64,000 bases of DNA, taken from positions 576,001 through 640,000 of the forward strand of contig CAWFOU010000007.1 of the NCBI GenBank assembly GCA_963817525.1, given 5' to 3'. Position 1 is the first letter of the stretch; each line of letters starts with the position of its first letter. The notes under the pieces were generated by a model, which worked only from the letters and a program-made list of their open reading frames with translations, had not been told where the DNA came from and made no database searches. Origin of the DNA: an uncultured archaeon (GTDB lineage Archaea; Thermoproteota; Nitrososphaeria; Nitrososphaerales; Gagatemarchaeaceae). The translations under genes and the position numbers were made by a program. Below are positions 10,101-37,672 of this stretch, in pieces.

Positions 10101-11297
10101 ATGCTCTTCGACACCATGAGCCAGAAGAAGGAGCCTCTGAAGGTCGTCCCAGGGGAGACCCTTCGGATGTTCGTGTGCGGGCCGACCGTCCAGAGCTTCA
10201 TACACGTGGGGAACGCGCGGACGCACGTCCTCTACGACGTGCTGGCGAGGTACCTGACGAGCCTCGGCGCCCGCGTGGACTTCCTCATGAACATCACCGA
10301 CGTGGACGACAGGATAACCGAGACCGCCAAGAGCGAGGGAGGGAGCCCCGCCGAGGTCGCGGACAAGTACACGCATGCGTTCTTCGAGGATATGCGAGCC
10401 CTGAAGGTCCAGTCCGTGACGAGCTTCGAGCGCGTCTCCGAATACGTCCAGGTGATGATAGACCAAATCACGATTCTCCTCGAGGATGGATACGCGTACC
10501 AGGCCGACGGGGTCGTCTACTTCGACACGTCCAAGTTCCCGGACTATGGTAAGCTCTCCCACCAGTCGAAGAGCGAGCTGTCGCTGAGGCCCCTGGAGCT
10601 CACCCCGAACAAGAGGAACCTCCTGGACTTTGCGCTCTGGCGGCCGGTCATCCTCGAGGAGGGTAAGTGGGACAGCCCGTGGGGGAGGGGGTCTCCGGGT
10701 TGGCACATCGAGGACACGGCCGTGACCCAGATGAGCTTCGGGCCGCAATACGACATCCACGGCGGCGCGTACGAGCTGATCTACCCGCACCATGAGGCCG
10801 AGATAGCGCAAGGGGAGTCCCTGACGGGTATGAGGCCGCTCGTGAGGTACTGGGTGCACACCGGGCTGCTCAACCTGAGCGGGCGGAAGATGTCAAAGTC
10901 AGCGGGGAACACCTTCCTGGTGAGGGAGCTCCTCAGGGAATACAGCGCCGACGAGCTGAGGCACTACCTCCTCTCGTGGCACTACAGGGACGACGTGGAG
11001 TTCAGCATCCCCCGGCTGAGGAAGGCGAGCAGGGCGTACCTGAGAGTTGCGGGCAAGGCCAGGAGGCTGAGGGCCTCCGCGAAGGCCGCGGGAGGCGCGG
11101 AGCGCTCCCCCGAGGAGGTGAGCAAGCGCCTCTCTCCGTTCTACTCGGCCATGGACGACGACATAGACACCCCCAGGGCGATAAGGTGGGTCGAGGAGGA
11201 GCTGGTCGGCGGGGGCTCGAAGGACGCGGCGCTGGACTATTCGGCGCTGCGCATAGTGTCTGACGTGCTTGGAGTGGACTACCTTGCCGAGCGGTGA
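10101..11297 (+). CDS. cysS: Cysteinyl-tRNA synthetase
   Basis: MFVCGPTV, HVGN (HIGH), NITDVDD, DFALW, PGWHIED, HHEAE, KMSKS. Confidence 0.93.
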   Translation: MLFDTMSQKKEPLKVVPGETLRMFVCGPTVQSFIHVGNARTHVLYDVLARYLTSLGARVDFLMNITDVDDRITETAKSEGGSPAEVADKYTHAFFEDMRALKVQSVTSFERVSEYVQVMIDQITILLEDGYAYQADGVVYFDTSKFPDYGKLSHQSKSELSLRPLELTPNKRNLLDFALWRPVILEEGKWDSPWGRGSPGWHIEDTAVTQMSFGPQYDIHGGAYELIYPHHEAEIAQGESLTGMRPLVRYWVHTGLLNLSGRKMSKSAGNTFLVRELLREYSADELRHYLLSWHYRDDVEFSIPRLRKASRAYLRVAGKARRLRASAKAAGGAERSPEEVSKRLSPFYSAMDDDIDTPRAIRWVEEELVGGGSKDAALDYSALRIVSDVLGVDYLAER

Positions 11298-23662: not shown

Positions 23663-26083
23663 GTGAAACGAGTTTTGGAGAACCAGGGGGAGCAAAAGCG
23701 GGCTACAGGTCCCGCGAACGCAGCCCCGCCCAACAGGCTAGAGTCGACCAGCTGGAACCCCGGCCTTGAGGAAGAGATGAGGAGGATATGGGGAATTGAA
23801 GATAATTTCAAGTTCAGGCCCAGTACCGATAAAAAACGCAATTTTGTGATGGACACGCCGCCCCCGTATCCGTCGGGGAAGCCCTGGCACCCGGGGGCGC
23901 TGACCCAGTACGCCCAGATAGACATGGTGGCGAGGGCCGCGAGGATGCGGGGTTTCAACGTCCTCTACCCGGTCGGCATCGACAGGAACGGGCTCCCGGT
24001 GGAGATAGCGACCGAGCGCAAGTACAGGATCCAGATGAGGAAGACGCCCCGGGAGGAGTTCATCGGGCTGTGCAAGCACGCCCTCGACGACATCGAGGCG
24101 TACATGGTCGACCTCCTGAAGAGGATGGGGATCTCCGGGGACTTCAAGGAGAAGTACCGCACCGACTCCGAGGAGTACAGGACGCTCACGCAGTGGTCGT
24201 TCATAGAGCTCTGGAACAAGGGGCTCATACACATCGCGACCAGGCCCAACAACTACTGCACCGACTGCGGGACGACGATAGCAGACGCGGAGATAGAGTA
24301 CGAGGACCTGCCGGCTTACCTTGTCACCAACAAGTTCACCGTCAAGGAGACGGGCGATGTCATCATGGTCTCGACGACGAGGCCGGAGCTGCTCTCCGCG
24401 TGCCAGCTGGTGGTCGTGAACCCGGCCGACGACCGCTACAAGCGCGTAGTCGGGAAGACCGCCGTCGTGCCAATCTATGGGAAGGAGGTCCCCATCAAGA
24501 CGCACAAGAGCGTCGACATGGAGTTCGGGACGGGCGTCCTCATGGTCTGCAGCTACGGAGACTACAATGACGTCCAAGTCTTCAGGCAGCTGGGCCTCAA
24601 GGAGATCCAGGCGATAGACATGGAGGGGAAGATGACGGCAGTCGCCGGCAAGTACGTGGGCATGGCCGTCAAGGATGCGCGGTCCCAGATAATCCAGGAC
24701 CTGCAGGACGCCAACGTCGCCGTCAAGGTGGAGCAGGTGCAGCACCGCACGCCCCTCTGCGAGAGGAGCCACACCCCCATCGAGATAATACCCATGGAGG
24801 AGTTCTACCTCAAGCAGCTCCAATTCGCCCCGACGCTGAAGAAGCTCGCGAGGCAGATAGAGTTCCACCCGCCGATGCACAGGCAGGTCCTCCTCGACTG
24901 GATCGACTCGCTCACCACGGACTACCCCATCTCCCGGAGGCGGTACTACGCGACGGAGATCCCGATCTGGTACTGCACCAAGTGCGAGACGCCGCACCTC
25001 CCCAAGCCCGGCAAGTACTACAGGCCCTGGAAGGACCCCGCCCCCTTCAGGAAGTGCTCGAAGTGTGCGAACACGAAGTTCGTGGGCGAGACGCGCACGT
25101 TCGACACCTGGATGGACTCGAGCATCTCAGCGCTCTACGTGACCAAGCTAACGAGGAACCAGAAGTTCTTCAAGGCGACCTACCCGACCACGCTCAGGCT
25201 CCAGGGCAAGGACATCGTCAGGACCTGGCTCTACTACTCGCTCCTGAGGTGCTACCTCCTCACGGGGAAGGCGCCCTGGAAGGAGGCATGGGTGGGCGGG
25301 CTCGGGCAGGACGCTCAGGGGAGGGCGATGCGCAAGAGCCTGGGCAACTTCATGGACCCGGAGCCGCTGCTCCAGAAGTACGGGACAGACACGTTCCGCT
25401 TCTGGGGCGCCGCGGAGGCTAACCTGGGCTACGACTTTAGGCTCTCGGAGGACAGGGTGGCGGGAGCGGGGAAGTTCCTCACAAAGCTCTGGAACACGGC
25501 CCGCTTCATTGCGTCGTTCCCGGAGCCGAAGAGCGCCAAGCTCACTCCCACCGACGTCTGGATACTCTCGGAGCTGAACCAGCTCATAGCGGATTGCGTC
25601 GCCGGGTACAAGGACGGCAACGGGTTCGTCCCCGCGACGAAGCTCAGGGAGTTCGTCTGGAACGTCTTCGCGGCGCACTACATCGAGATGGTCAAGGGAC
25701 GCGCCTATGGGGACGGGGTGAAGAAGGAGGAGTGCGACGCGGCGAGGTTCACCCTGCACCGCGTGATGAAGTCGATTCTGCTGCTCACGGCGCCCATCGC
25801 GCCCCACATGACCGACCACATCTGGAGGAGGCTCTACGGTCAGCGGAGCATACATTTGGAGAGGTTCCCGGATGCGGACAGGAACAAGGCGAGCAGGGGC
25901 GCCAGCCAGGCAATCATTGCGTTCGACGAGCAAATCTGGAAGACCAAGCGTGACAAGGGCGTGAGCCTGAAGGAGCCCGCCGAGGCGGTCGTGCCTACCA
26001 AGCTCAGGCCTTACGCCGCGGACTTGGGGAGGATGCACCACATCCAGAAGCCCCAGAAGGCCGCCAAGGCTGCTACCAGCTGA
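23663..26083 (+). CDS. valS: Valyl-tRNA synthetase
   Basis: DTPPPYPSG..WHPG, TTRPELL, ISRRRYYATEIP, DTWMDSS, QGKDIVRTW, MRKSLGN. Confidence 0.95.
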   Translation: MKRVLENQGEQKRATGPANAAPPNRLESTSWNPGLEEEMRRIWGIEDNFKFRPSTDKKRNFVMDTPPPYPSGKPWHPGALTQYAQIDMVARAARMRGFNVLYPVGIDRNGLPVEIATERKYRIQMRKTPREEFIGLCKHALDDIEAYMVDLLKRMGISGDFKEKYRTDSEEYRTLTQWSFIELWNKGLIHIATRPNNYCTDCGTTIADAEIEYEDLPAYLVTNKFTVKETGDVIMVSTTRPELLSACQLVVVNPADDRYKRVVGKTAVVPIYGKEVPIKTHKSVDMEFGTGVLMVCSYGDYNDVQVFRQLGLKEIQAIDMEGKMTAVAGKYVGMAVKDARSQIIQDLQDANVAVKVEQVQHRTPLCERSHTPIEIIPMEEFYLKQLQFAPTLKKLARQIEFHPPMHRQVLLDWIDSLTTDYPISRRRYYATEIPIWYCTKCETPHLPKPGKYYRPWKDPAPFRKCSKCANTKFVGETRTFDTWMDSSISALYVTKLTRNQKFFKATYPTTLRLQGKDIVRTWLYYSLLRCYLLTGKAPWKEAWVGGLGQDAQGRAMRKSLGNFMDPEPLLQKYGTDTFRFWGAAEANLGYDFRLSEDRVAGAGKFLTKLWNTARFIASFPEPKSAKLTPTDVWILSELNQLIADCVAGYKDGNGFVPATKLREFVWNVFAAHYIEMVKGRAYGDGVKKEECDAARFTLHRVMKSILLLTAPIAPHMTDHIWRRLYGQRSIHLERFPDADRNKASRGASQAIIAFDEQIWKTKRDKGVSLKEPAEAVVPTKLRPYAADLGRMHHIQKPQKAAKAATS

Positions 26084-26890
26084 CTAGGCGAACATCCTGG
26101 ACAGGGCCTTGTAGTCGTCGCCCGAGATCCTACCATCGAGGGCGTGTGCGTTCTCCTCGACGTGCTCGACGCTAGAAGCCTTGGGAATCGCGATGACGGA
26201 GTCCCTGTACGTGATCCAGTTCAGCATGAGCTGCGCCACGGTCATCCCGTATTTGTCGAGGAGCGCCTGAGGGATCTTCCTCGGTAGCCTCCCCGTGTCC
26301 AGGGGGCTGTACGCGATGACGGTGATCTTCTCCTTCTCGCAAAACGGGAGCAGGTCGGGCTCGATGGTGTGGTCGGTCAGGCTGTACCTCACCTGGTTGG
26401 AGGCGATCTCCGACCTTGGCAGGGCCTCCCTCGCATCTTGCGTCTCGGCCACCGAGAAGTTGCTGACGCCTATGTAGCGAATCTTGCCCCTGGACACGAG
26501 CTCCTCCATTGCTTTCATCGTCTCCCCTATGCGGACCTGATGGCTCGGCCAGTGCAATTGGTAGAGGTCGATTTGCTTGACGCCCAGCCGCCTTATGCTG
26601 GCCTCGCACGACTTTAGGACATCGTCGTAGCGAAAGTGCTCGGGCGACACCTTCGTGGCGATGAACGCGTCGTCTCCTGCGCCTGTGATGGCTTCGCCGA
26701 CGAGCTTCTCCGCGTTGCCGCGGCCGTACATCTCCGCCGTGTCTATGAGTGTCATTCCCAGCTCGAGGCCCTTCCGGAGGGCCTGAATCTCGAGGGCGCG
26801 CGCCTCGTCTTTGGCCTCGCCGATCAGCCACGTCCCCATGCCTATCACCGGGACCTTCTCCCGGGTCTTGCCGAGTTCGCGCTTCTCCAA
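26084..26890 (-). CDS. Aldo/keto reductase
   Basis: IGMGTW, IDTAEMYG, IDLYQLHWP, IGVSNFS, AYSPL, IPKAS. Confidence 0.93.
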   Translation of the reverse strand: MEKRELGKTREKVPVIGMGTWLIGEAKDEARALEIQALRKGLELGMTLIDTAEMYGRGNAEKLVGEAITGAGDDAFIATKVSPEHFRYDDVLKSCEASIRRLGVKQIDLYQLHWPSHQVRIGETMKAMEELVSRGKIRYIGVSNFSVAETQDAREALPRSEIASNQVRYSLTDHTIEPDLLPFCEKEKITVIAYSPLDTGRLPRKIPQALLDKYGMTVAQLMLNWITYRDSVIAIPKASSVEHVEENAHALDGRISGDDYKALSRMFA

Positions 26891-26956
26891 AGGAAGACTC
26901 GGTGAAAGTGAAACCGGTTGGTATTATGTGTGAATGGTGAGGGGCGGGCGTCCCTT

Positions 26957-27004
26957 AAAGGGAGATAAACCGACGCGGCAGGAGGGAAACTCGCGCCACG
27001 GTAG
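26957..27004 (+). repeat. Diverged inverted copy of the tRNA-Thr(TGT) promoter and first 10 nt
   Basis: aaagggagataaaccgacgcggcaggagggaaactcgcGCCACGGTAG versus aaaggagataagcagacctcggcagggggaatcctgcGCCACGGTAG (reverse complement of 29163-29209); about 41 of 50 columns match in a hand alignment. Confidence 0.8.
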
Positions 27005-27187
27005 ATTGTGGCAGGCCACACGGGCCTGCCCACAGTACGCGTGGCGAAGCCGCCGAAGACTATCCTAGGCCAGTTGCGATGCTCTAACCACGATATCAAG
27101 TTACATATCTGGTTGGTCTTTGGCTCCGAAACTACCAAGTGTCGGTCTGTCCGATGCCGAAATCGGACCTCCTGTTTACTTGGAACG

Positions 27188-27940
27188 TCACTTCACCACG
27201 AAGTGAAGTATTACCACTTGCCCCCACATGTCCTCGATGCCGACCGTGTACACGCCAGGGGTGAAGGGAGTCGTAACAGGACTGTCAATGGTCTGCTGCC
27301 CTTCGTAATTCAAGAAGACGCTGGCACGCTCCGAGTTATTCGACAGGTCCCAAGAACCGTTCGTGGTGAACGTGCCCAACACATAGTAGGGGCCCAGCGT
27401 CTCGTTAGGCTGTCCAGGGGCAGATTGGCCCGTGAGGTTCGCCTGCGCGCTATGTGGCCCGAATGTTACTTGCTCCACCCTCATCCCCGTGGTGCAGCCG
27501 AATACTGGGACGTGGACATCAGCTACGGAAGTAATGTTGCTTATCGTGTAGTCGCCCCTGAGCACGACGGCTTCCGCTTCCGCGGATACATTGAAACCAA
27601 CGCTTGACGTTCCCAGAAGCATCAAATCACAATCGGGCCACACGGCCAAGGGAATGCCCTTGAAGGGGAAACCATCTAAGACTGGCAACCTATTGGTGGT
27701 TGAGAGGGTATTGGATATGGAGACGTTGACCCGCAAAGCCTGACCCGGAGTTAGCTGCGAGGTATTTAGGGAAGCGGTCAGTTGAAGGCCGTCTGAGCCA
27801 AGGGCATTTCCCTGTACCGTTTCGTTCGCTTGAGACGTCGGAGAATAGAGGTTGTTTACCTCGTAAGCGGCGATGGTGGTGACAAGTAGCGTCACCACGA
27901 CGATAGGAATAATCCGGCGGGAGTATTCGGACATTTGCAA
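27188..27940 (-). CDS. Hypothetical secreted/membrane-anchored protein
   Basis: N-terminal TM, GLQLTASLN, C-terminal FTPGVYTVGIEDMWGQVVILHFVV. Confidence 0.7.
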   Translation of the reverse strand: MQMSEYSRRIIPIVVVTLLVTTIAAYEVNNLYSPTSQANETVQGNALGSDGLQLTASLNTSQLTPGQALRVNVSISNTLSTTNRLPVLDGFPFKGIPLAVWPDCDLMLLGTSSVGFNVSAEAEAVVLRGDYTISNITSVADVHVPVFGCTTGMRVEQVTFGPHSAQANLTGQSAPGQPNETLGPYYVLGTFTTNGSWDLSNNSERASVFLNYEGQQTIDSPVTTPFTPGVYTVGIEDMWGQVVILHFVVK

Positions 27941-28062
27941 TCGACCTAATCAGATTCAACACACACTATATTGCTACGCCTTAGCAAGAGCTTTGCTACT
28001 AGTTATTTGACGACGTTCTCACAATATTGATAATTATTCTATCTTTATCTCCGCAATGACGG

Positions 28063-28401
28063 CTAGATAGTTTGCCTTAGAGTGACGATGCTCTGGTAGA
28101 GCGAGACAATTAGGGCCACGGCTATTGTGATTAGAGAGAAAACGTAAGACGGGGTCAGAGAAGAAGGGCGGAGGAGAGTCACAAGCAGGGTGAAAGAGGC
28201 GGCCAAGAAGGTCGAAAATGCCGCCCATAACGGGATGACCATCCTTCTGATTCGTAGCATGTTTTCGAAGACTACTCTGTCCGCGCTGTAACCCTCACTT
28301 CCCTCGCGGATGAGTCCCAAGCCAACCAGTTTTTTGAGATGATATTCGGCTACCGAAGATGAACTCAAATTGAGATCTTTGGAGGAGTAGGAAGCTGACA
28401 A
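28063..28401 (-). pseudogene. N-terminally truncated winged-HTH plus two-TM protein
   Basis: DLNLSSSSVAEYHLKKLVGLGLI then two TM helices; first HTH helix appears missing. Confidence 0.5.
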
Positions 28402-29039
28402 TGTTGAGCAATGGATCCCGATACACGGCGCTCGGCGTCGGGGTAGGATCGTACTACGCGAAAGTCGGGTTCATATCATCCGATGGGGTGAGAATGAGGT
28501 TGGTCGCAAGAGAGATGGCAGCCGGGGCAAAGCTCGTCACGATGTATCGGCGGGACCCGACCCCGCTCTACAGGTTCGGCAAGATAGAGAAGAGTAAGCT
28601 GGGCTTTTGGATTGATAACGCCGCCGATGTTTACGAGGTCAACGATGTCATTCTTCAAAGAGACTATGAAAGGAAACTATTGGCTAACGGCTCGAGATAC
28701 GAGATGGCCAGATTTGGGACGGAAATTGCTTACGCCATAATGAAAGAAGGATTTGGCGTCAAGGGGTTGGTTTTTTCTGAACCGTCGAGACCGGGAGCTG
28801 ACTTGCATACGAATGATGGGAGGATTGTGGCGGAGGCAAGGCTTGCACGAATCACCAAGACTCTGGGAATTGTGGAATTGAACAGCCAGCTGCGGAGGGA
28901 CATTACTCAGATGTTCTGGAAAGTGAAATACGACCTCAAGCATAGTTTTGCGGAAAGAGGTTATGCTGTATTTTCCTACCTCACACCTGATGCTTCCCTC
29001 AAAGCGCTCATAATAGCAATGCAGCAAATGAAGAAGTGA
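28401..29039 (+). CDS. Hypothetical protein, possibly a PD-(D/E)xK-like nuclease fragment
   Basis: Low-GC ORF with GTEIAY...PGADL.....IVAEAR; ends next to the tRNA-Thr 3' end. Confidence 0.45.
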   Translation: MLSNGSRYTALGVGVGSYYAKVGFISSDGVRMRLVAREMAAGAKLVTMYRRDPTPLYRFGKIEKSKLGFWIDNAADVYEVNDVILQRDYERKLLANGSRYEMARFGTEIAYAIMKEGFGVKGLVFSEPSRPGADLHTNDGRIVAEARLARITKTLGIVELNSQLRRDITQMFWKVKYDLKHSFAERGYAVFSYLTPDASLKALIIAMQQMKK

Positions 29040-29040
29040 G

Positions 29041-29172
29041 AGCCACGGGAGGGAGTGTCAATCACTGCATGCGGCGCTTTCCGCACGCAGATGATTTTTG
29101 ATCCCTCGACCTGCTGCTTGCTTGGCTTCTAGCCTACAAGGCAGCTGCTCTACCAGGCTGAGCTACCGTGGC
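29041..29172 (-). tRNA. tRNA-Thr(TGT) with two BHB introns (37/38: 29119-29134; 59/60: 29055-29096)
   Basis: Acceptor GCCACGG/CCGTGGC-T; spliced anticodon arm GCTGC-CTTGTAA-GCAGC; central helix CTTG/CAAG; T-loop ATCAAAT after splicing. Confidence 0.9.
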
Positions 29173-29319
29173 GCAGGATTCCCCCTGCCGAGGTCTGCTT
29201 ATCTCCTTTGTTGAACCGCTCTGCCGAGGAATCGGGCGGCCCCTGAAGTTCTTTCCCAGAGTCCTAGGGCACCCAAAATCCCATAAGGAACGAAGCTTGA
29301 TTGAAATCCTCGATGTCCT

Positions 29320-29937
29320 ATGACATGCGTCCTCAAGGATGCCACAGTTGCTGCTGCGGCTAGCCTGGTCATCTCGGCGGTATCATATTTTGTGACGGTC
29401 AAGGGCGTGCATCTTTGGCTCCCGCGGATTGACGCGGTGGGAACTGCCGTCGTCCACGGCTTCCCAATCCCATACGCGGCCTACTTCCCAACCAACGAAT
29501 CGTCCTACCTGTTTTACCCTCTGAACTTCGGCGGTGACTACCTGATTTGTTCCGCAGTCGCTTTTCTCGTGATGGCCGCTTTTACTGTCAGGAGGCTGAT
29601 TCTTGCTTCGATCTCGGGGCTCGCCGTGACCGCCCTGACCTTGCTTCTGCCATCGTTGGCCTTGGCTACCCCTGAGAATCTACCTTTGGAGTGTTCAGGC
29701 ACGCCGATGGGATTTCCGTTCGAGTACTTGTTTCGTCTCGAATGTTTTACGTCCGGTGCTGTTTCGTATCAGTTCAGCCCGCTGAGCGCGGTGGTGGACT
29801 ACGTGTTGTGGTTGGGGGTGAGCTTCTCCGCCATCGGCCTTTGCTTCCTGCTCCTCGCCTCGACAAGGAGGCACCGAATCTCGAGAGTTCAAATCCCTCC
29901 CGTGGCTCTCCACTCCGCCGTTAATGGTCAGTTGTGA
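29320..29937 (+). CDS. Hypothetical membrane protein with internal duplication
   Basis: Two TM-GFP(I/F)xY...PL....DY-TM units. Confidence 0.6.
   Translation: MTCVLKDATVAAAASLVISAVSYFVTVKGVHLWLPRIDAVGTAVVHGFPIPYAAYFPTNESSYLFYPLNFGGDYLICSAVAFLVMAAFTVRRLILASISGLAVTALTLLLPSLALATPENLPLECSGTPMGFPFEYLFRLECFTSGAVSYQFSPLSAVVDYVLWLGVSFSAIGLCFLLLASTRRHRISRVQIPPVALHSAVNGQL
29881..29910 (+). repeat. Copy of the tRNA-Thr 3' end without the T-loop intron (att-like relic)
   Basis: TCGAGAGTTCAAATCCCTCCCGTGGCTCTC versus spliced tRNA-Thr TCGAGGGATCAAATCCCTCCCGTGGCT plus trailer CTC: 28 of 30 identical, opposite orientation. Confidence 0.85.
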
Positions 29938-30016
29938 TGACTCGGAGGGTCGGGGTCGCCATGTTGAATCTCGGTGGTCCTCGGATTGGATTCAGCGTGC
30001 TTTCTGTCAGAGGAAT

Positions 30017-30463
30017 TCACTGCCAACTGCCTGTGAATTGCACCGAAGAGCCATCGCTAAATTGGATGGAGCCGTTAAGATGGTATCCTGGGATAGACAA
30101 GGCATTTCCCGACGAGGGCGAACACGAGACGTTCACCAAGCCCCCGGCCGGCACGCTGCTTGCCTTCGGCGAGAGGACGCCGGGCGAGTCATTTAGCGTG
30201 CAGCCAGTCGCCTCGACGGTCCCGCCCGAGTTCACCAGTGAAACGACGCATGTTCCCTGACTGGAGTTGCACGACACATTGCTCACGGTGACATGCGCGG
30301 GCGCACCCTGAATCGGGGGGACTGTCGAGCTGGAACTGCTAGAATAGCTGCTCGTAGCACCACCGGAACTCCCGGAAGTTGAAGGCGAGTGCAATAGCAG
30401 ATACGCTCCTCCAGCCCCCGCAAGCAGGATTACGACCAGGGCAGCGACGAGTTGGCCTTTCAT
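30017..30463 (-). CDS. Hypothetical secreted/membrane-anchored protein
   Basis: N-terminal hydrophobic helix, Ser-rich linker, small Cys-paired beta domain. Confidence 0.65.
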   Translation of the reverse strand: MKGQLVAALVVILLAGAGGAYLLLHSPSTSGSSGGATSSYSSSSSSTVPPIQGAPAHVTVSNVSCNSSQGTCVVSLVNSGGTVEATGCTLNDSPGVLSPKASSVPAGGLVNVSCSPSSGNALSIPGYHLNGSIQFSDGSSVQFTGSWQ

Positions 30464-30554
30464 CTGCGCTCGGTGCGGATGGATTTTCGGATGCGATAAG
30501 TCTTGGGATTTGGATCGTGCGAGGCTCCCGAAAGCGGCCTCTGCCCCATGGCTC

Positions 30555-30956
30555 TCACTTCCTCCCGATTTCGCGCGAGCGCAGGACGTCTGACGCGAGG
30601 AGCCTCAAAAAATCGTCGTACTCCTCGTCGTCGAACCTCACCTCTCGGACCAGCCCGGACTCCTCCGCTATCTTGTAGCTCAAGATGTGGTAGCAGTACT
30701 TGGCCTTGGCGCTCAGCACGCTGTAGAAGAAGGACTCGCAAGAACAGAATGGTTTGTCCGGGTCTATGAACTCGTCCGCGTTGCTCCCGACGACCGTGTA
30801 GACGTGCCGCCCGCTCGGAAGGAAAACGTGCCTCTTGACGCTGCCGTTGAAGGCCGCCTCGACCGCCTTCTCGAACATGTTCCGGTCCTTCGAGTAGCGG
30901 GCGAACCTCGACGCGAGCTGCTCCTTGGATTCTATGGCCTCTGCCACTTTAATCAA
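30555..30956 (-). CDS. SWIM zinc-finger protein
   Basis: FCSCESF...CYH motif; coupled to the dinB stop. Confidence 0.8.
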   Translation of the reverse strand: MIKVAEAIESKEQLASRFARYSKDRNMFEKAVEAAFNGSVKRHVFLPSGRHVYTVVGSNADEFIDPDKPFCSCESFFYSVLSAKAKYCYHILSYKIAEESGLVREVRFDDEEYDDFLRLLASDVLRSREIGRK

Positions 30957-32041
30957 CTCGTGAACTCGGTGAGCGAGTGTTGGTCCACCATGTTCCTGAG
31001 GTCGCTCAGGCGGACCCCCGCCCGGCGCAGCTCCCCGACCTCGCGGAGCAGCTCGGCAAACAGCAGCCTGACCTCCTTCTCTAGGACGAGGTAGTCGCTC
31101 GTGGGCGTCTCAAGGGTCTTGCTCTTCGAGTGTTGTGACAGGTCCTTGAGGATGCCGATTACCGAGACGTTCCTGAAAAAGAGGCCCCTCGAGACGAGCT
31201 TCTGGTGGACGTCCTTCAGCGCCGGGAGGAGCTCCTCGACCACCTTCTTGGGGTCGTCCGTGTCGTGCTTCAGCGTGACAATCCTGCCGAGCTGGGTGGC
31301 CTCTCCGCGGTCAACGACGGGCTCGTCGTCCAATCCCCCTGAGGCGTTGCGGAGGTAGACCGCGAGCTTCTTTCCGAGTATGTCCTCGAGCCTCTGGGCG
31401 GGGGCGCTCGAGAGGTCTGGGATGGTCGATATGCCGTTGTCCTCCAGCAGCTTCGCGGTCTTGGGGCCGACGCCGGAGATCTTCTCGATTGGGAGCGGAG
31501 ACAGGAAGGCTGCGGTCTCGTCGTCCTTCACGACCGTGAGCCCGTCCGGCTTCTGGAAGTCGGAGGCTATCTTAGCCACGACCTTGTTGGGACCGATTCC
31601 TATGGAGCAGGTCAGCCCCTCATCTCTCGCCACCTTCTCCTTGATGCTCAGGGCGAGGGACGTGGCAGTCGCGTAGCTTCCTCCGGTCCTCTTCGTGATG
31701 TCGAAGAACGCCTCGTCTATCCCGGTCTGCTCGAGTACATCTACCTCGTTCCTGACCGCTTCCATCACGCGCTCGGAGTACGTCTCGTACTTTTCGTGGT
31801 CCATGCGTATGAAGGCGGCTTCAAGTCCGTCCAGGCGGCGCTTCGCTAGAGTGATTGGGATCCCGGACTTGACGCCGTGCTCCCTTGCCTTGTAGTTCGC
31901 CGTGCTTACCACGCCGCTCTCCTCTGTCCTCCCGGAGAAGACGCACACCACGACAGGCCTGCCCTTCAGGGCGGGGTTCTCCACCTCCTCGACCTGGGCG
32001 TAGAAATAGTCGAGGTCGAGATGACCGACGATGCGGCTCAA
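30953..32041 (-). CDS. dinB: DNA polymerase IV (Y family, DinB/Dbh)
   Basis: HLDLDYFYAQVE, VSTANYKAR, IDEAF, AKIASDFQKPDG, GVGPKT. Confidence 0.95.
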   Translation of the reverse strand: MSRIVGHLDLDYFYAQVEEVENPALKGRPVVVCVFSGRTEESGVVSTANYKAREHGVKSGIPITLAKRRLDGLEAAFIRMDHEKYETYSERVMEAVRNEVDVLEQTGIDEAFFDITKRTGGSYATATSLALSIKEKVARDEGLTCSIGIGPNKVVAKIASDFQKPDGLTVVKDDETAAFLSPLPIEKISGVGPKTAKLLEDNGISTIPDLSSAPAQRLEDILGKKLAVYLRNASGGLDDEPVVDRGEATQLGRIVTLKHDTDDPKKVVEELLPALKDVHQKLVSRGLFFRNVSVIGILKDLSQHSKSKTLETPTSDYLVLEKEVRLLFAELLREVGELRRAGVRLSDLRNMVDQHSLTEFTS

Positions 32042-36732: not shown

Positions 36733-36884
36733 GCCGGGGTAGCATAGCTTGGCCCATTGCGCCGGCTACGCCCAAGCGTGGGCGAGACTCATAATCGGCC
36801 AAGATGTGAAATCCGGAGAGGATAGCGATATCCCCGAAGGTCGCGGGCTCAAAATGCAGCGGCATGAGAATCCCGCCCCCGGTA
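36733..36884 (+). tRNA. Elongator-type tRNA-Met(CAT) with four BHB introns (30/31: 36766-36786; 37/38: 36794-36810; 45/46: 36819-36839; 59/60: 36854-36870)
   Basis: Removing the four inserts gives a 76-nt cloverleaf: GCCGGGG/CCCCGGT-A, CCGGA-CTCATAA-TCCGG, AGGTC, GCGGG-CTCAAAT-CCCGC. Confidence 0.88.
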
Positions 36885-37065
36885 CCTTTTTTGGACTGCC
36901 TTAGCGGAAGGAGGACTTAGTTGTGGTCGTGGAGTGCCTACCGGCCCCGGAGATTCGCAATCGAATTCTCGAGGGTTATGATGTCTGCGCGAAGATTCGG
37001 ACGGTCCAAAGGAAGATTCGAGGAAATTCTTTGCGGTGTGAAAAATCGCTGAAGTTCATTGTAGG

Positions 37066-37139
37066 AGCCGCGATCGGGAATTGAACCCGAGACCTTTACC
37101 TTACCAAGGTAACGCTCTACCAGACTGAGCTATCGCGGC
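37066..37139 (-). tRNA. tRNA-Thr(GGT), no intron
   Basis: GCCGCGA/TCGCGGC-T; TTACC-TTGGTAA-GGTAA; T-loop TTCAATT. Confidence 0.95.
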
Positions 37140-37204: not shown

Positions 37205-37672
37205 ATGGATGATTCCCAGTCGCGGCTCTACGCTGCTTGGAAACGCGTAAAGTCAGGCCTGTCCTCTGAGGCTGCCGTGGTCAAGTTCACGGCCAAGGAG
37301 GAGGCGTTTCTAAAGTCCAACGAGGTGTGCCGCCTCGCGACGGCCTCAAAGGATGGGAGGCCGCAGGTCACGCCCGTCATCTACGCGCTGGACGGGGCTG
37401 CCTTCGTGGTTGCGGTCGACTACGGCACGAAGAAGCTAAAGAACGTCAGGGAGAACCCGAGCGTGGCGCTCGTGGTGGACAGGCTCCGCCCGACCAGGGC
37501 GGTGACGGTCGAGGGGACCTGCAAGGTGTACGAGAGAGGCACCGAATACCTCAGGCTACTAGGCCTGCTGATGGATAGGTTCGAGAGCTATCGGAAGAAC
37601 CCGTGGGGAGAGGGAGAGTCGCCGATCTTTCGCATAGCCCCGGACAAGGCCGTGAGTTGGGGCTTGGGATAG
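37205..37672 (+). CDS. Pyridoxamine 5'-phosphate oxidase-like (PPOX class) protein; start may be 37277
   Basis: RLATASKDGRPQVTPV, KLKNVRENPSVALVVD. Confidence 0.85.
   Translation: MDDSQSRLYAAWKRVKSGLSSEAAVVKFTAKEEAFLKSNEVCRLATASKDGRPQVTPVIYALDGAAFVVAVDYGTKKLKNVRENPSVALVVDRLRPTRAVTVEGTCKVYERGTEYLRLLGLLMDRFESYRKNPWGEGESPIFRIAPDKAVSWGLG

Follow-up and report, generated by a model that had tools for sequence, protein, structure and literature searches.

Organization of the interrupted tRNA-Thr(UGU) gene

The window, by which we mean the whole 64,000-nucleotide stretch of DNA from a soil archaeon that was analysed, contains two separated plus-strand pieces of a tRNA-Thr(UGU) gene that flank 2876 bp of lower-GC DNA (Table 1). 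Nucleotides (nt) 11–46 of the resident gene are gone and the 2876 bp stand in their place, with a GC content of 0.530 as against 0.619 and 0.588 in the flanks. Alignments and base composition thus bear out an earlier sequence-only reading, in which a plus-strand promoter with nt 1–10 and a T-arm with 3' end bracket about 2.9 kb of lower-GC cargo.

Table 1. Features of the tRNA-Thr(UGU) and tRNA-Thr(GGU) loci, in positions of the window.
Feature	Position	Strand	Description
5' relic	26957..27004	+	promoter P_R and nt 1–10 (nt 1–10 at 26995–27004)
Left insert end	27005..27057	+	GC-rich hairpin, closed by 6-bp acceptor-like pairing with the first bases of the relic
c250	27188..27940	-	predicted secreted or membrane-anchored protein, multi-copy family
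c112	28063..28401	-	small protein; N-terminal DNA-binding-like part and C-terminal membrane helices, as read from the sequence
c212	28401..29039	+	orphan C-terminal module of a multi-copy protein family of ~700 aa
Working tRNA-Thr(UGU)	29172->29041	-	132 nt; exons 29172–29135, 29118–29097 and 29054–29041
Introns of the working gene	29134–29119; 29096–29055	-	16 nt at 37/38; 42 nt at 59/60
Promoter P_U of the working gene	29173..29222	-	diverged relative of P_R by alignment
c205	29320..29937	+	membrane protein ORF; last ~15 codons and stop codon from the tRNA 3' relic and trailer
3' relic 1	29881..29910	+	nt 47–73 and trailer; no T-loop intron, T54, one T-stem mismatch
o148	30017..30463	-	small secreted-looking protein, in a 635-bp segment between the two 3' relics
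3' relic 2	30545..30558	+	last 8 nt of the tRNA and trailer; overlaps the o133 stop codon
LAGLIDADG remnant	36911..37015	+	37 C-terminal residues, convergent with tRNA-Thr(GGU)
tRNA-Thr(GGU)	37064..37139	-	intronless; opposite in orientation to the gene of G034, G031 and clade-B species
GGU 3' relic	37212..37229	+	from the displaced gene, continuous with the old trailer; aligned to the intact G034 gene and to G012

The 5' relic is identical at 46 of 48 positions to the promoter and nt 1–10 of the congener G034, and at 43 of 44 to those of G018, where the same sequence drives an intact gene. Against the window's own minus-strand tRNA promoter it gives a local alignment score of 47 (maximum of 24 in 500 shuffles), and the promoter portion alone scores 30 (maximum of 23 in 1000 shuffles). 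An independent genome search recovered the relic at E 4.8e-4. When the sequences preceding the 41 tRNAs that ARAGORN calls in this genome were inspected by eye, its promoter was seen in none. The alignment to G034 ends after nt 10 and resumes at nt 47; the DNA beyond nt 10 is not tRNA-like, 1939 of 2000 shuffles scoring as high or higher. The hairpin that begins there (RNAfold, −34.7 kcal/mol for 26995–27062) has no match in any relative's locus.

On the right, 3' relic 1 is identical at 28 of 30 positions to the spliced working gene and its trailer and, as the earlier reading stated, keeps T54 and lacks an insert at 59/60. Searched against the whole genome, the exact 17-nt core gives an E of 0.03, and the relic is collinear with the tRNA 3' end and trailer of G034 well past the tRNA (76% identity over 29881–30554). 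By these alignments both plus-strand pieces are recognizable as the remains of the intronless tRNA-Thr(UGU) gene that was resident at this locus. A shorter 3' relic, which the earlier reading had passed over, matches at 13 of 14 positions in the window and 14 of 14 in G034, at the same position as the tRNA end in G018 and G031. We also considered a split, trans-spliced tRNA gene and rejected it, given the missing nt 11–46, the DNA after nt 10 and the position of the 3' piece inside an ORF.

The complete tRNA-Thr that the earlier reading placed on the minus strand within the cargo, with a 59/60 intron and A54, is supported by its fold and exon matches. Unconstrained RNAfold yields a cloverleaf in which each insert forms an additional helix (−68 kcal/mol), and removal of both introns leaves a 74-nt tRNA-Thr(UGU) whose three exons are 100% identical to the intronless genes of four congeners (G018, G031, G032 and G034). 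In the minimum-energy fold both inserts lie in helices with small flanking loops; when drawn by hand, a canonical 3-4-3 bulge-helix-bulge (BHB) motif is possible at 37/38 and a relaxed one, with one A–C mismatch, at 59/60. ARAGORN and Rfam both missed this gene, and no other copy of its exons was found in the assembly, where it is the only tRNA-Thr(UGU) gene found. Its promoter, P_U, differs from P_R at about a quarter of positions and by two indels, while P_R is 91–98% conserved among five species. Its 13-nt trailer is that of G031, where it overlaps the o133 stop codon (26 nt at 100%), and shows that the inverted allele derives from a gene that once abutted o133.

The remaining genes of the insert resemble host genes. 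c250 has 12 more tblastn matches in the genome and two in the G009 locus, with no match in Pfam, NCBIfam or PHROGs. c112 has a 71% paralogue at C7:81416–81736 beside a c250-like gene, and three further paralogues; c112-like and c250-like genes are paired elsewhere. c212 is convergent with the working tRNA gene and abuts its 3' end. Among 301 genomes of the order, 16 have matches to it; all 16 are of one family, and the matches lie mostly within frames of 400–780 aa. Its structural model (pLDDT 88) has a weak PD-(D/E)xK-like similarity (Z 5–7) and no Foldseek match. c205 is 75% identical to residues 4–191 of a 405-aa ORF in G012, with homology stopping at 29888–29892, and the block of P_U and c205 is common to that genome (76% over 710 nt). 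Beyond the insert, o148 has a 70% identical homologue at the same place in G034 and is absent from G018, G031 and G012; its 635-bp segment has the tRNA end on either side as a direct repeat (relic 2 on one side; on the other, relic 1 or, in G034, the intact gene). On these similarities the insert cargo is assigned to multi-copy host-type families.

The same locus in related genomes

The AKR-to-DinB interval of relatives holds the plus-strand tRNA-Thr that the sequence-only reading had suggested looking for: an uninterrupted, intronless tRNA-Thr(UGU) gene with P_R lies at the syntenic site in 4 of 15 congener loci (G034, G018, G031 and G032). G034 matches the window on both flanks, with no 261- and 316-aa genes after AKR and with the o148 segment and relic 2, and its gene order (AKR, P_R, tRNA, o148, o133, DinB) gives the ancestral arrangement. 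Because these four congeners keep an uninterrupted gene, and G034 agrees on both sides, the alignments indicate that the resident allele at this locus was replaced by the inverted two-intron allele with its own promoter. The earlier reading had offered allele replacement or intron gain after an integration; the replacement is supported, and the intron gain is the poorer fit, both introns having come in with the replacement allele as one unit. It had also set T54 in the intronless relic beside A54 in the intron-bearing gene. All four intact intronless genes have A54, so A54 is not tied to the intron; the relics of the window genome and of G012 both have T54.

G012 preserves what by comparison looks to be a related, further overwritten state, with a decayed 5' relic of P_R (nt 1–34), a P_U relic with nt 2–7, c205, a 3' relic that keeps nt 54–73, and another two-intron gene that adjoins an intact endonuclease gene. 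Since these relics extend to nt 34 and from nt 54, the junctions at nt 10 and nt 47 in the window are probably products of erosion, not the original break. The shared P_U–c205 block sits on a different flank background in G012. A locus tree of four linked genes (from a quick search only) places G012 beside G034 and not beside the window genome, so that two events or a lateral exchange would be needed to account for the shared block. In G009 an inverted relic of nt 22–37 lies about 110 nt upstream of the gene. Across the congener loci the working UGU gene is on the plus strand in 9 of 15 and on the minus strand in 6 of 15.

A second tRNA-Thr gene and its LAGLIDADG endonuclease

The tRNA-Thr(GGU) gene, 8 kb from the UGU locus, has the same topology: the gene is inverted, an endonuclease remnant comes before it, and a 3' relic of the old plus-strand gene comes after it. 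This remnant matches the intact proteins of G012 and G009 (tblastn E 8e-7 and 2e-7; hmmsearch E 0.005), so that the GGU cassette comprises a LAGLIDADG homing endonuclease gene that is intact in those two genomes and a remnant in the window. The G012 protein (P0001) carries both LAGLIDADG motifs, with G63-D64 and D178-S179-D180-G181 invariant in 26 sequences, and its predicted structure (pLDDT 95) matches I-DmoI, PI-SceI, I-SceI and I-Tsp061I with E values of 2e-7 to 1e-5. It has no Pfam match of its own, and PF14528 is found on 4 of 72 homologues and one source name. By the two motifs and the modelled fold it is a predicted LAGLIDADG homing endonuclease.

A tRNA gene directly follows the stop codon of the endonuclease relative in all 18 thaumarchaeal loci (14 tRNAs called by ARAGORN and 4 read by eye), a tally that overstates the association since the kin are not independent. 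In two loci from other genera, L035 and L043, the endonuclease lies exactly between o133 and tRNA-Thr(UGU)/AKR. All four endonuclease-linked UGU genes have two introns, and unlinked genes of the genus are intronless in 9 of 15 cases. The GGU genes beside intact endonuclease genes (n=2) have no intron, while unlinked GGU genes have one of 12–16 nt; introns therefore cannot be a general immunity device. Judged by alignment, tRNA-Thr genes appear to have been overwritten repeatedly in this group, and in relatives the overwriting goes together with the putative homing endonuclease.

Alternative origins of the interrupted locus

An assembly artefact or chance similarity is close to refuted as an explanation. 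Contamination of the genome, a metagenome bin, is estimated at 8.75%, and the exact core of 3' relic 1 alone has only the E value given above, but Logan contigs of four runs match it with no difference and no alternative joint; the runs all belong to one study, from which the MAG may itself derive. They bridge the left junction (X1 record 1; X2 record 9) and the right junction (X1 record 6; X2 record 14; X4 record 30) and cover the tRNA and its promoter (X3 record 21; X4 record 29). The independent assemblies of G012 and G034 carry matching pieces, and the shuffle controls for the 5' relic stand against chance. We think it unlikely, too, that the arrangement arose by local rearrangement with no mobile agent, in which the promoter–tRNA–trailer unit was duplicated in inverted orientation, for example in repair of a spontaneous break, variable genes from nearby were mixed in, and one of the two copies then decayed. 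The inverted gene has a promoter and a trailer homologous to those of the resident locus, the cargo belongs to host multi-copy families and the insert holds no mobile-element gene, all as this would have it. A local copy, however, would need to have gained two introns and to have diverged in its promoter far beyond the conservation of P_R; moreover, the P_U–c205 block recurs in G012 on different flanks, and the topology is repeated at a second tRNA-Thr gene, there with an endonuclease.

An integrase-borne element could also have targeted the plus-strand gene. Its attP would have been similar to the 3' part of tRNA-Thr, and it would have produced attL (the intact gene) and attR (3' relic 1) while carrying the complete inverted tRNA-Thr, the attL copy and the integrase being deleted later. 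Such elements usually leave direct repeats of tRNA 3' parts as a scar, tRNA genes are the site of 39 of the 68 thaumarchaeal integrated elements reported in PMC6563490, and Sugahara et al. proposed this model for Caldiarchaeum (PMC3293823). The direct repeats around the o148 segment, the lower GC of the insert and the T54 of the two sets of relics against A54 in the intact genes, as if the element had supplied the left part of attR, also agree with it. We nevertheless regard it as improbable. Searches of Pfam, NCBIfam and PHROGs found no integrase or recombinase in the six ORFs between AKR and o133 (c250, c112, c212, c205, o90 and o148) or in nine ORFs of the G012 interval and flanks, and no intact direct copy is left. 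The 2.9-kb insert does not end in direct repeats of one tRNA part; nt 1–10 and nt 47–73 do not overlap, and the intact gene lies within the insert in the opposite orientation. Together with the host-type cargo, this leaves an integrative element with att sites unsupported for the insert. The inverted topology at the GGU locus is likewise unexplained by an integrase, the only mobile-type gene there being the endonuclease.

Replacement of the resident allele and a candidate trigger

On balance we hold the combined account, in which the resident allele was replaced and an endonuclease may have started the overwriting, to be somewhat probable. From the trailer identical to that of G031 and the alignment of P_U with P_R, we infer that the donor was an allele of the same locus in a related lineage. 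After its arrival the resident copy would have become dispensable and then eroded. As trigger, our leading though tentative candidate is a LAGLIDADG double-strand break mended with a spare-tRNA cassette. Homing endonucleases sitting against tRNA-Thr genes would make the break in a tRNA-Thr gene, and repair would install a cassette whose spare tRNA, through introns or altered stems, escapes the enzyme; the endonuclease gene of the UGU insert would since have been lost or replaced. Relics would persist only where the spare copy is inverted, since a cassette between direct repeats would be lost again by recombination.

A complete tRNA with its own promoter between the pieces of a broken resident gene for the same tRNA speaks for such a cassette. 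Against it, no LAGLIDADG gene abuts the tRNA in the UGU insert, a feature that the GGU locus has as a remnant; in 26891–30554 tblastn found no endonuclease gene or remnant and the best hmmsearch hit had E 0.37. With neither an integrase nor an endonuclease remnant in the 2.9-kb insert, endonuclease overwriting here is a step that we infer. Further points weigh against the endonuclease model: c212, which occupies the position that the endonuclease has at the GGU locus, has no similarity to the LAGLIDADG protein; the donor trailer abutted o133 and not an endonuclease gene; and the cargo genes are from ordinary multi-copy families of these genomes. Repair guided by homology would be expected to give a direct copy, so inversion needs an extra assumption, and the same-site enzyme in two other genera may be a long-term resident instead of an invader. 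As for the link that the earlier reading drew to the idea that tRNA introns destroy att sites, the evidence speaks for homing endonucleases no less than for integrases. A broader possibility, which we put forward as speculative and rather doubtful, is that tRNA-docked LAGLIDADG endonucleases act as an engine of tRNA turnover in non-ammonia-oxidising soil Thaumarchaeota, perhaps in archaea at large, by breaking cassette-free tRNA-Thr genes that are then repaired with an uncuttable spare allele (with introns or compensatory stem changes).

The origin of non-canonical tRNA introns, tRNA fragments and split genes in archaea is an old question, on which the literature offers a single case at population level and a hypothesis that invokes integrases. 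Here a single genus offers a series that runs from an intact intronless gene, through the same gene broken around an inverted two-intron allele, to a further overwritten state. The parallel event at the second tRNA-Thr gene carries a putative homing endonuclease and so provides an alternative that can be taken to the bench: is the intronless gene cut, and the intron-bearing or stem-swapped one spared? If the endonuclease model is true, the window would record three stages (untouched in congeners, overwritten at UGU with the endonuclease lost, overwritten at GGU with an endonuclease remnant), and an arms race with nucleases, not integrases, would have produced non-canonical tRNA introns, tRNA fragments and flipped tRNA genes as side effects. 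In practical terms, standard tRNA finders overlook the only tRNA-Thr(UGU) gene found in this genome.

Comparison with known systems

A literature search found no paper on a LAGLIDADG endonuclease with a spare-tRNA cassette. The closest published case is the heterogeneity of tRNA-Thr(GGU) in Caldiarchaeum subterraneum described by Sugahara et al. in 2012 (PMC3293823). As described there, it likewise concerns a tRNA-Thr gene in the same phylum-level group, a 5' fragment with upstream region is left, and an insert of ~1.9 kb separates the fragment from a working gene with one more intron. Unlike the present case, fragment and working gene come from a population sample, the authors invoke a pNOB8-type integrase, and the 813-bp ORF of the insert, which recurs seven times in the genome (once beside tRNA-Thr(CGU)), is classed by a machine-learning predictor only. 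The window differs in having both 5' and 3' relics, an inverted replacement, congeners with the uninterrupted state, and a LAGLIDADG gene at the GGU locus and in relatives. Archaeal tRNA-gene integration, with attL and attR as direct repeats (PMC6563490; see also PMC8371274), shares the tRNA target and the 3' fragments as scars, and the o148 segment fits it; the insert itself, with no integrase or direct intact copy and with non-overlapping pieces around an inverted complete gene, does not.

A further comparison is with the free-standing homing endonucleases of T-even phages, among them SegB in the T4 tRNA gene cluster, and with 'intronless homing' and 'collaborative homing' (PMC2988022). By that account, an endonuclease gene beside tRNA genes causes the region around it to be inherited preferentially, and in collaborative homing the genome that bears the endonuclease is protected by an intron in its target gene, both of which resemble the cassette proposed here. 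The T-even enzymes are of the GIY-YIG or HNH type, however, and repair in the phages is described as proceeding from a co-infecting genome, with no relics in that account, whereas here a predicted LAGLIDADG enzyme in archaeal chromosomes is accompanied by a spare tRNA gene and broken resident genes. In fold and motifs the G012 and G009 protein is like the archaeal intron-encoded I-DmoI and I-Tsp061I and the intein PI-SceI; unlike these, it lies outside any intron or intein, has ~70 extra C-terminal helical residues and is always beside a tRNA gene. Finally, Randau and Soll (cited in PMC3293823) proposed that introns in tRNA genes, and the splitting of such genes, guard against integrating elements. 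In keeping with the hypothesis as cited there, the allele that was struck is intronless and the one that survives contains introns, including one in the T-loop; unlike in that hypothesis, the introns entered with the invading DNA instead of arising to defend the host, and a nuclease, not an integrase, may have been the agent.

Relics of a resident tRNA-Thr gene flank an inverted working gene

The window retains pieces of a resident plus-strand tRNA-Thr(UGU) gene on either side of an insert of about 2.9 kb, within which the working gene for the same tRNA lies inverted (see table). The sequence-only reading had described this pair of relics, the lower GC content of the DNA between them and an intronless 3' relic with T54, and all of these hold. 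P_R, the promoter kept in the 5' relic, drives the intact resident gene in the congeners G034 and G018. The 3' piece that ends the insert (relic 1) has T54, no T-loop insert and a single T-stem mismatch, and rightward from it the window is collinear with the tRNA end, trailer and next gene of G034 (76%). The 2876 bp between the relics have a GC content of 53%, compared with 59-62% in the flanks. Shuffle controls and a genome-wide comparison with other tRNA promoters exclude both chance and a generic promoter consensus as explanations. We also considered the 5' relic as one half of a split tRNA or as a decayed whole tRNA and rejected both, as the sequence past nucleotide 10 is not tRNA-like (1939 of 2000 shuffles scored at least as high).

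Two further observations concern the relics themselves. T54 occurs in the 3' relics of both the genome under study (29888-29910) and the congener G012 (10328-10350 of its locus, L017), and A54 in all four intact genes of the P_R type; the common T54 may mean either that the relics share an origin or that incoming DNA donated the sequence. At 26995-27062 on the plus strand, P_R and the first 10 nucleotides of the dead gene continue as a GC-rich hairpin (-34.7 kcal/mol) whose closing helix is acceptor-like and 6 bp long. If P_R is still active, this segment would yield an orphan RNA, small and structured, in antisense to the 3' flank of c250, an ORF of the insert.

The working gene received no call from ARAGORN, even with intron options on, or from Rfam. 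Its unconstrained fold is a cloverleaf with two inserts forming extra helices, and removal of 16 nucleotides at 37/38 and 42 nucleotides at 59/60 leaves a 74-nucleotide tRNA. The intronless genes of four congeners match all three of its exons with 100% identity. By hand reading of the fold, unscored, we could draw a bulge-helix-bulge of canonical form at 37/38 and of relaxed form at 59/60. A BLAST search of the whole assembly found no second copy of these exons. The status of this gene as the only UGU gene is taken from that exon search, because the identity of an ARAGORN 'tRNA-Thr(tgt)' call on contig C3 (7277-7374, 98 nucleotides) is doubtful. That sequence has C33 and an acceptor, GGGCCCG, that differs from the working gene, and Rfam reports it as a tRNA with 30 unaligned nucleotides in the anticodon region; judged by these features, the call probably represents a tRNA of different identity that bears an intron.

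The genome is a metagenome bin of 2.8 Mb in 15 contigs. Public contigs from four runs (one study, possibly the source of the bin) span both junctions as well as the tRNA with 0 differences and no alternative joints, and an assembly artefact is nearly excluded.

Features of the tRNA-Thr(UGU) interval and of the tRNA-Thr(GGU) locus
Feature	Position	Strand	Remarks
ValRS	23663-26083	+	Left neighbour in gene order
Aldo-keto reductase (AKR)	26084-26890	-	Left border of interval
5' relic, promoter P_R and nt 1-10	26957-27004	+	Matches 46/48 to G034, 43/44 to G018
Working tRNA-Thr(UGU), 132 nt	29172->29041	-	Defined by hand and folding
3' relic 1, nt 47-73 and trailer	29881-29910	+	Matches 28/30 to spliced gene
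3' relic 2	30545-30558	+	Matches 13/14; overlaps o133 stop codon; also present in G034
o133, 133 aa	30555-30956	-	Right border of interval
DinB	30953-32041	-	Beyond o133
tRNA-Thr(GGU)	37064-37139	-	Inverted relative to G034, G031 and clade-B species
3' end of displaced tRNA-Thr(GGU)	37212-37229	+	Past new promoter, continuous with old trailer

Congeners reveal an allele replacement at a hot spot

We compared the syntenic locus in 15 congeners. The AKR-to-DinB interval holds an uninterrupted, intronless tRNA-Thr(UGU) gene with P_R, on the strand corresponding to the window's plus strand, in G018, G031, G032 and G034. Its 3' end adjoins the o133 stop codon in the first three and the segment of the gene o148 in G034. 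G034 is the window's twin except for the insert: tRNA nucleotides 11-46 are swapped for 27005-29880, the genes of 261 and 316 amino acids that come after AKR at the other loci are missing only in these two, and among the congeners o148 and relic 2 occur in G034 alone. This comparison bears out the allele replacement that the sequence-only reading had proposed, with the resident intronless allele destroyed and an inverted, intron-bearing allele of the same locus functionally replacing it. We regard this replacement as very probable; the event is real and well documented, and the site is a hot spot.

Within the genus, the working gene has one orientation at nine loci and the opposite one at six; among unlinked UGU genes, nine are intronless, five have one extra segment and that of the window has two. 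This survey of orientation and intron states points to recurrent tRNA turnover at the locus. At the congener loci (L013-L027), a unit of about 125 bp comprising promoter and tRNA-Thr(UGU) lies between the 316-amino-acid gene and o133 in either orientation, often with no relic, an arrangement that suggests repeated flips or replacements.

The promoter of the inverted gene, P_U, is alignable with P_R, from which it differs at about one position in four and by two indels, against 91-98% conservation of P_R among five species. The first 13 trailer bases of the inverted allele are those of the G031 trailer (26 nucleotides at 100%), and that trailer is antisense to the final codons and stop of o133. 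The divergence of P_U and the trailer identity together indicate that the inverted allele derives from this locus in a more distant lineage and was excised 13 nucleotides past the tRNA.

P_U and the adjoining membrane-protein gene c205 are also present in G012 (76% over 710 nucleotides). There P_U is itself a relic, with tRNA nucleotides 2-7 remaining, overlaid by another two-intron tRNA-Thr(UGU) whose 37/38 intron is similar by eye to that of the genome under study; farther out lie a decayed P_R relic (nucleotides 1-34) and a 3' relic (nucleotides 54-73). A tree of four linked genes, from a quick search only and omitting G013, whose locus sequence lacks ValRS and AKR, placed G012 beside G034 and not beside the genome under study. 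Given this placement, the shared P_U-c205 block implies two insertions or lateral exchange.

A second tRNA-Thr locus is linked to a homing endonuclease

Eight kilobases away, tRNA-Thr(GGU) is a second tRNA-Thr gene with the same topology, and here a homing endonuclease forms part of the incoming unit. The plus-oriented GGU genes of G034, G031 and the clade-B species have an intron of 12-16 nucleotides, and G012 retains a longer piece of the displaced gene than the window does. On the side of tRNA-Thr(GGU) away from that displaced piece, an intact gene of 310-320 amino acids is convergent with the tRNA in G012 and G009; the window keeps its last 37 codons only. At 36733-36884 (plus strand) we observed a 152-nucleotide tRNA with a CAU anticodon and extra segments in three places, namely the anticodon-arm region, the variable region and the T-loop. 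ARAGORN and Rfam both missed it, and it is conserved in G034, where it lies directly upstream of the tRNA-Thr(GGU) site.

In the G012/G009 protein there are two LAGLIDADG motifs, whose acidic residues are invariant, and some homologues carry PF14528 or are named 'LAGLIDADG family homing endonuclease'. The intact G012 enzyme, P0001, had no match among PDB sequences; the endonuclease model (pLDDT 95) matches I-DmoI, PI-SceI, I-SceI and I-Tsp061I. A scan of relatives, one genome per species, gave 19 loci, of which one weak Woesearchaeota match was left out. A tRNA gene lies at the endonuclease stop in 18 of 18 loci (14 by ARAGORN, four by eye), convergent in 17 of them, with its start at most about 60 nucleotides from the stop, and co-directional in the G012 UGU copy. 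All four UGU-linked loci have two introns, and two of them, in other genera, sit exactly between o133 and AKR. Among eight CGU-linked loci, the six with an unbroken endonuclease match have one intron each, and the two that are intronless (L044 and L045, other genera) have the match in two overlapping pieces, apparently a broken gene. Both GGU-linked loci are intronless, and the four CAU-linked ones are multi-intron.

Three more relatives of the endonuclease in this genome (C1:195407-196936, C1:939659-940924 and C10:10509-11714) adjoin, convergently, the ends of protein genes rather than tRNAs; by reading, these ends are an EF-1alpha-like and an S28e-like C-terminus. A metagenome scan for the junction of exon and T-loop intron returned 32 stretches, none with the endonuclease or synteny genes: 31 lie outside a recognisable tRNA, judged from their flanks, and one represents a tRNA with a T-loop intron from an unrelated low-GC organism.

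Cargo of the insert

The genome has many paralogues of the gene pair to which the ORFs c250 and c112 belong, and no insert ORF matched an integrase or mobile-element family in Pfam, NCBIfam or PHROGs. The last 15 or so codons and stop of c205 (29881-29937, plus strand) are read from relic 1 and its trailer, so that the end of a dead tRNA now serves as coding sequence; at five other loci the c205 family has no tRNA linkage.

The remaining ORF, c212, corresponds to the C-terminal module of a multi-copy family of about 700 amino acids, here as an orphan copy. We rejected c212 as a degenerate LAGLIDADG protein, finding no similarity. PDB sequences gave weak oxidoreductase rows only, and Foldseek nothing at E <= 0.001. 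VIA-align Z scores of 5-7 to PD-(D/E)xK-type nucleases fall in what the tool names the noise range, and a 699-amino-acid homologue gave an Atlas lead of 0.87, under the bar of 0.9, to restriction-endonuclease-fold toxin domains; a predicted nuclease likeness is a lead only. The larger family has up to eight members per genome, with a conserved C-terminal module of about 200 amino acids followed by an ORF of about 217 amino acids (L054, L049 and 15 further loci), and no Pfam match. With its weak Atlas look-alikes among nuclease-toxin domains, it may be a polymorphic-toxin-like system of soil Thaumarchaeota.

Possible mechanism and comparison with known systems

In the mechanism we propose, an endonuclease would make a double-strand break in a tRNA-Thr gene, and repair would use DNA carrying a spare, uncuttable allele. 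The resident copy would erode next and the endonuclease gene itself decay later, a remnant at GGU and its absence at UGU representing stages of that decay. Inverted copies would persist with relics because direct repeats recombine out. We hold the LAGLIDADG endonuclease as a candidate trigger of the overwriting at slightly less than an even chance, judging from gene linkage. Several findings count against it: tblastn and hmmsearch found no endonuclease trace in the UGU insert, the donor trailer adjoined o133 and not an endonuclease, GGU genes beside intact enzymes are intronless, and two genera keep the enzyme stably at one site.

An integrase-type element that has since lost its integrase is unlikely, given the lack of any integrase match among the insert ORFs; thaumarchaeal integrase scars at tRNA genes are described as direct repeats (PMC6563490). 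A local inverted duplication is equally unlikely. For the endonuclease, phages offer the precedents treated in PMC2988022, namely free-standing endonucleases next to tRNA genes, such as T4 SegB, together with intronless and collaborative homing. In the openly accessible literature we found no paper on archaeal LAGLIDADG genes that stand free next to a tRNA gene, and none on inverted tRNA replacement.

Among published cases, the tRNA-Thr(GGU) locus of Caldiarchaeum subterraneum comes nearest. There, in the account of PMC3293823, a population harbours a 5' fragment and a 1.9-kb insert alongside a gene bearing an additional intron. That account gives tRNA-Thr as the only tRNA thus affected, types a multi-copy 813-bp ORF by function predictor only and proposes a pNOB8-type integrating element (PMC3293823). 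With its inverted geometry, double relic, within-genus series and endonuclease parallel, the locus described here is a good test bed for intron gain and fragmentation in archaeal tRNA genes.
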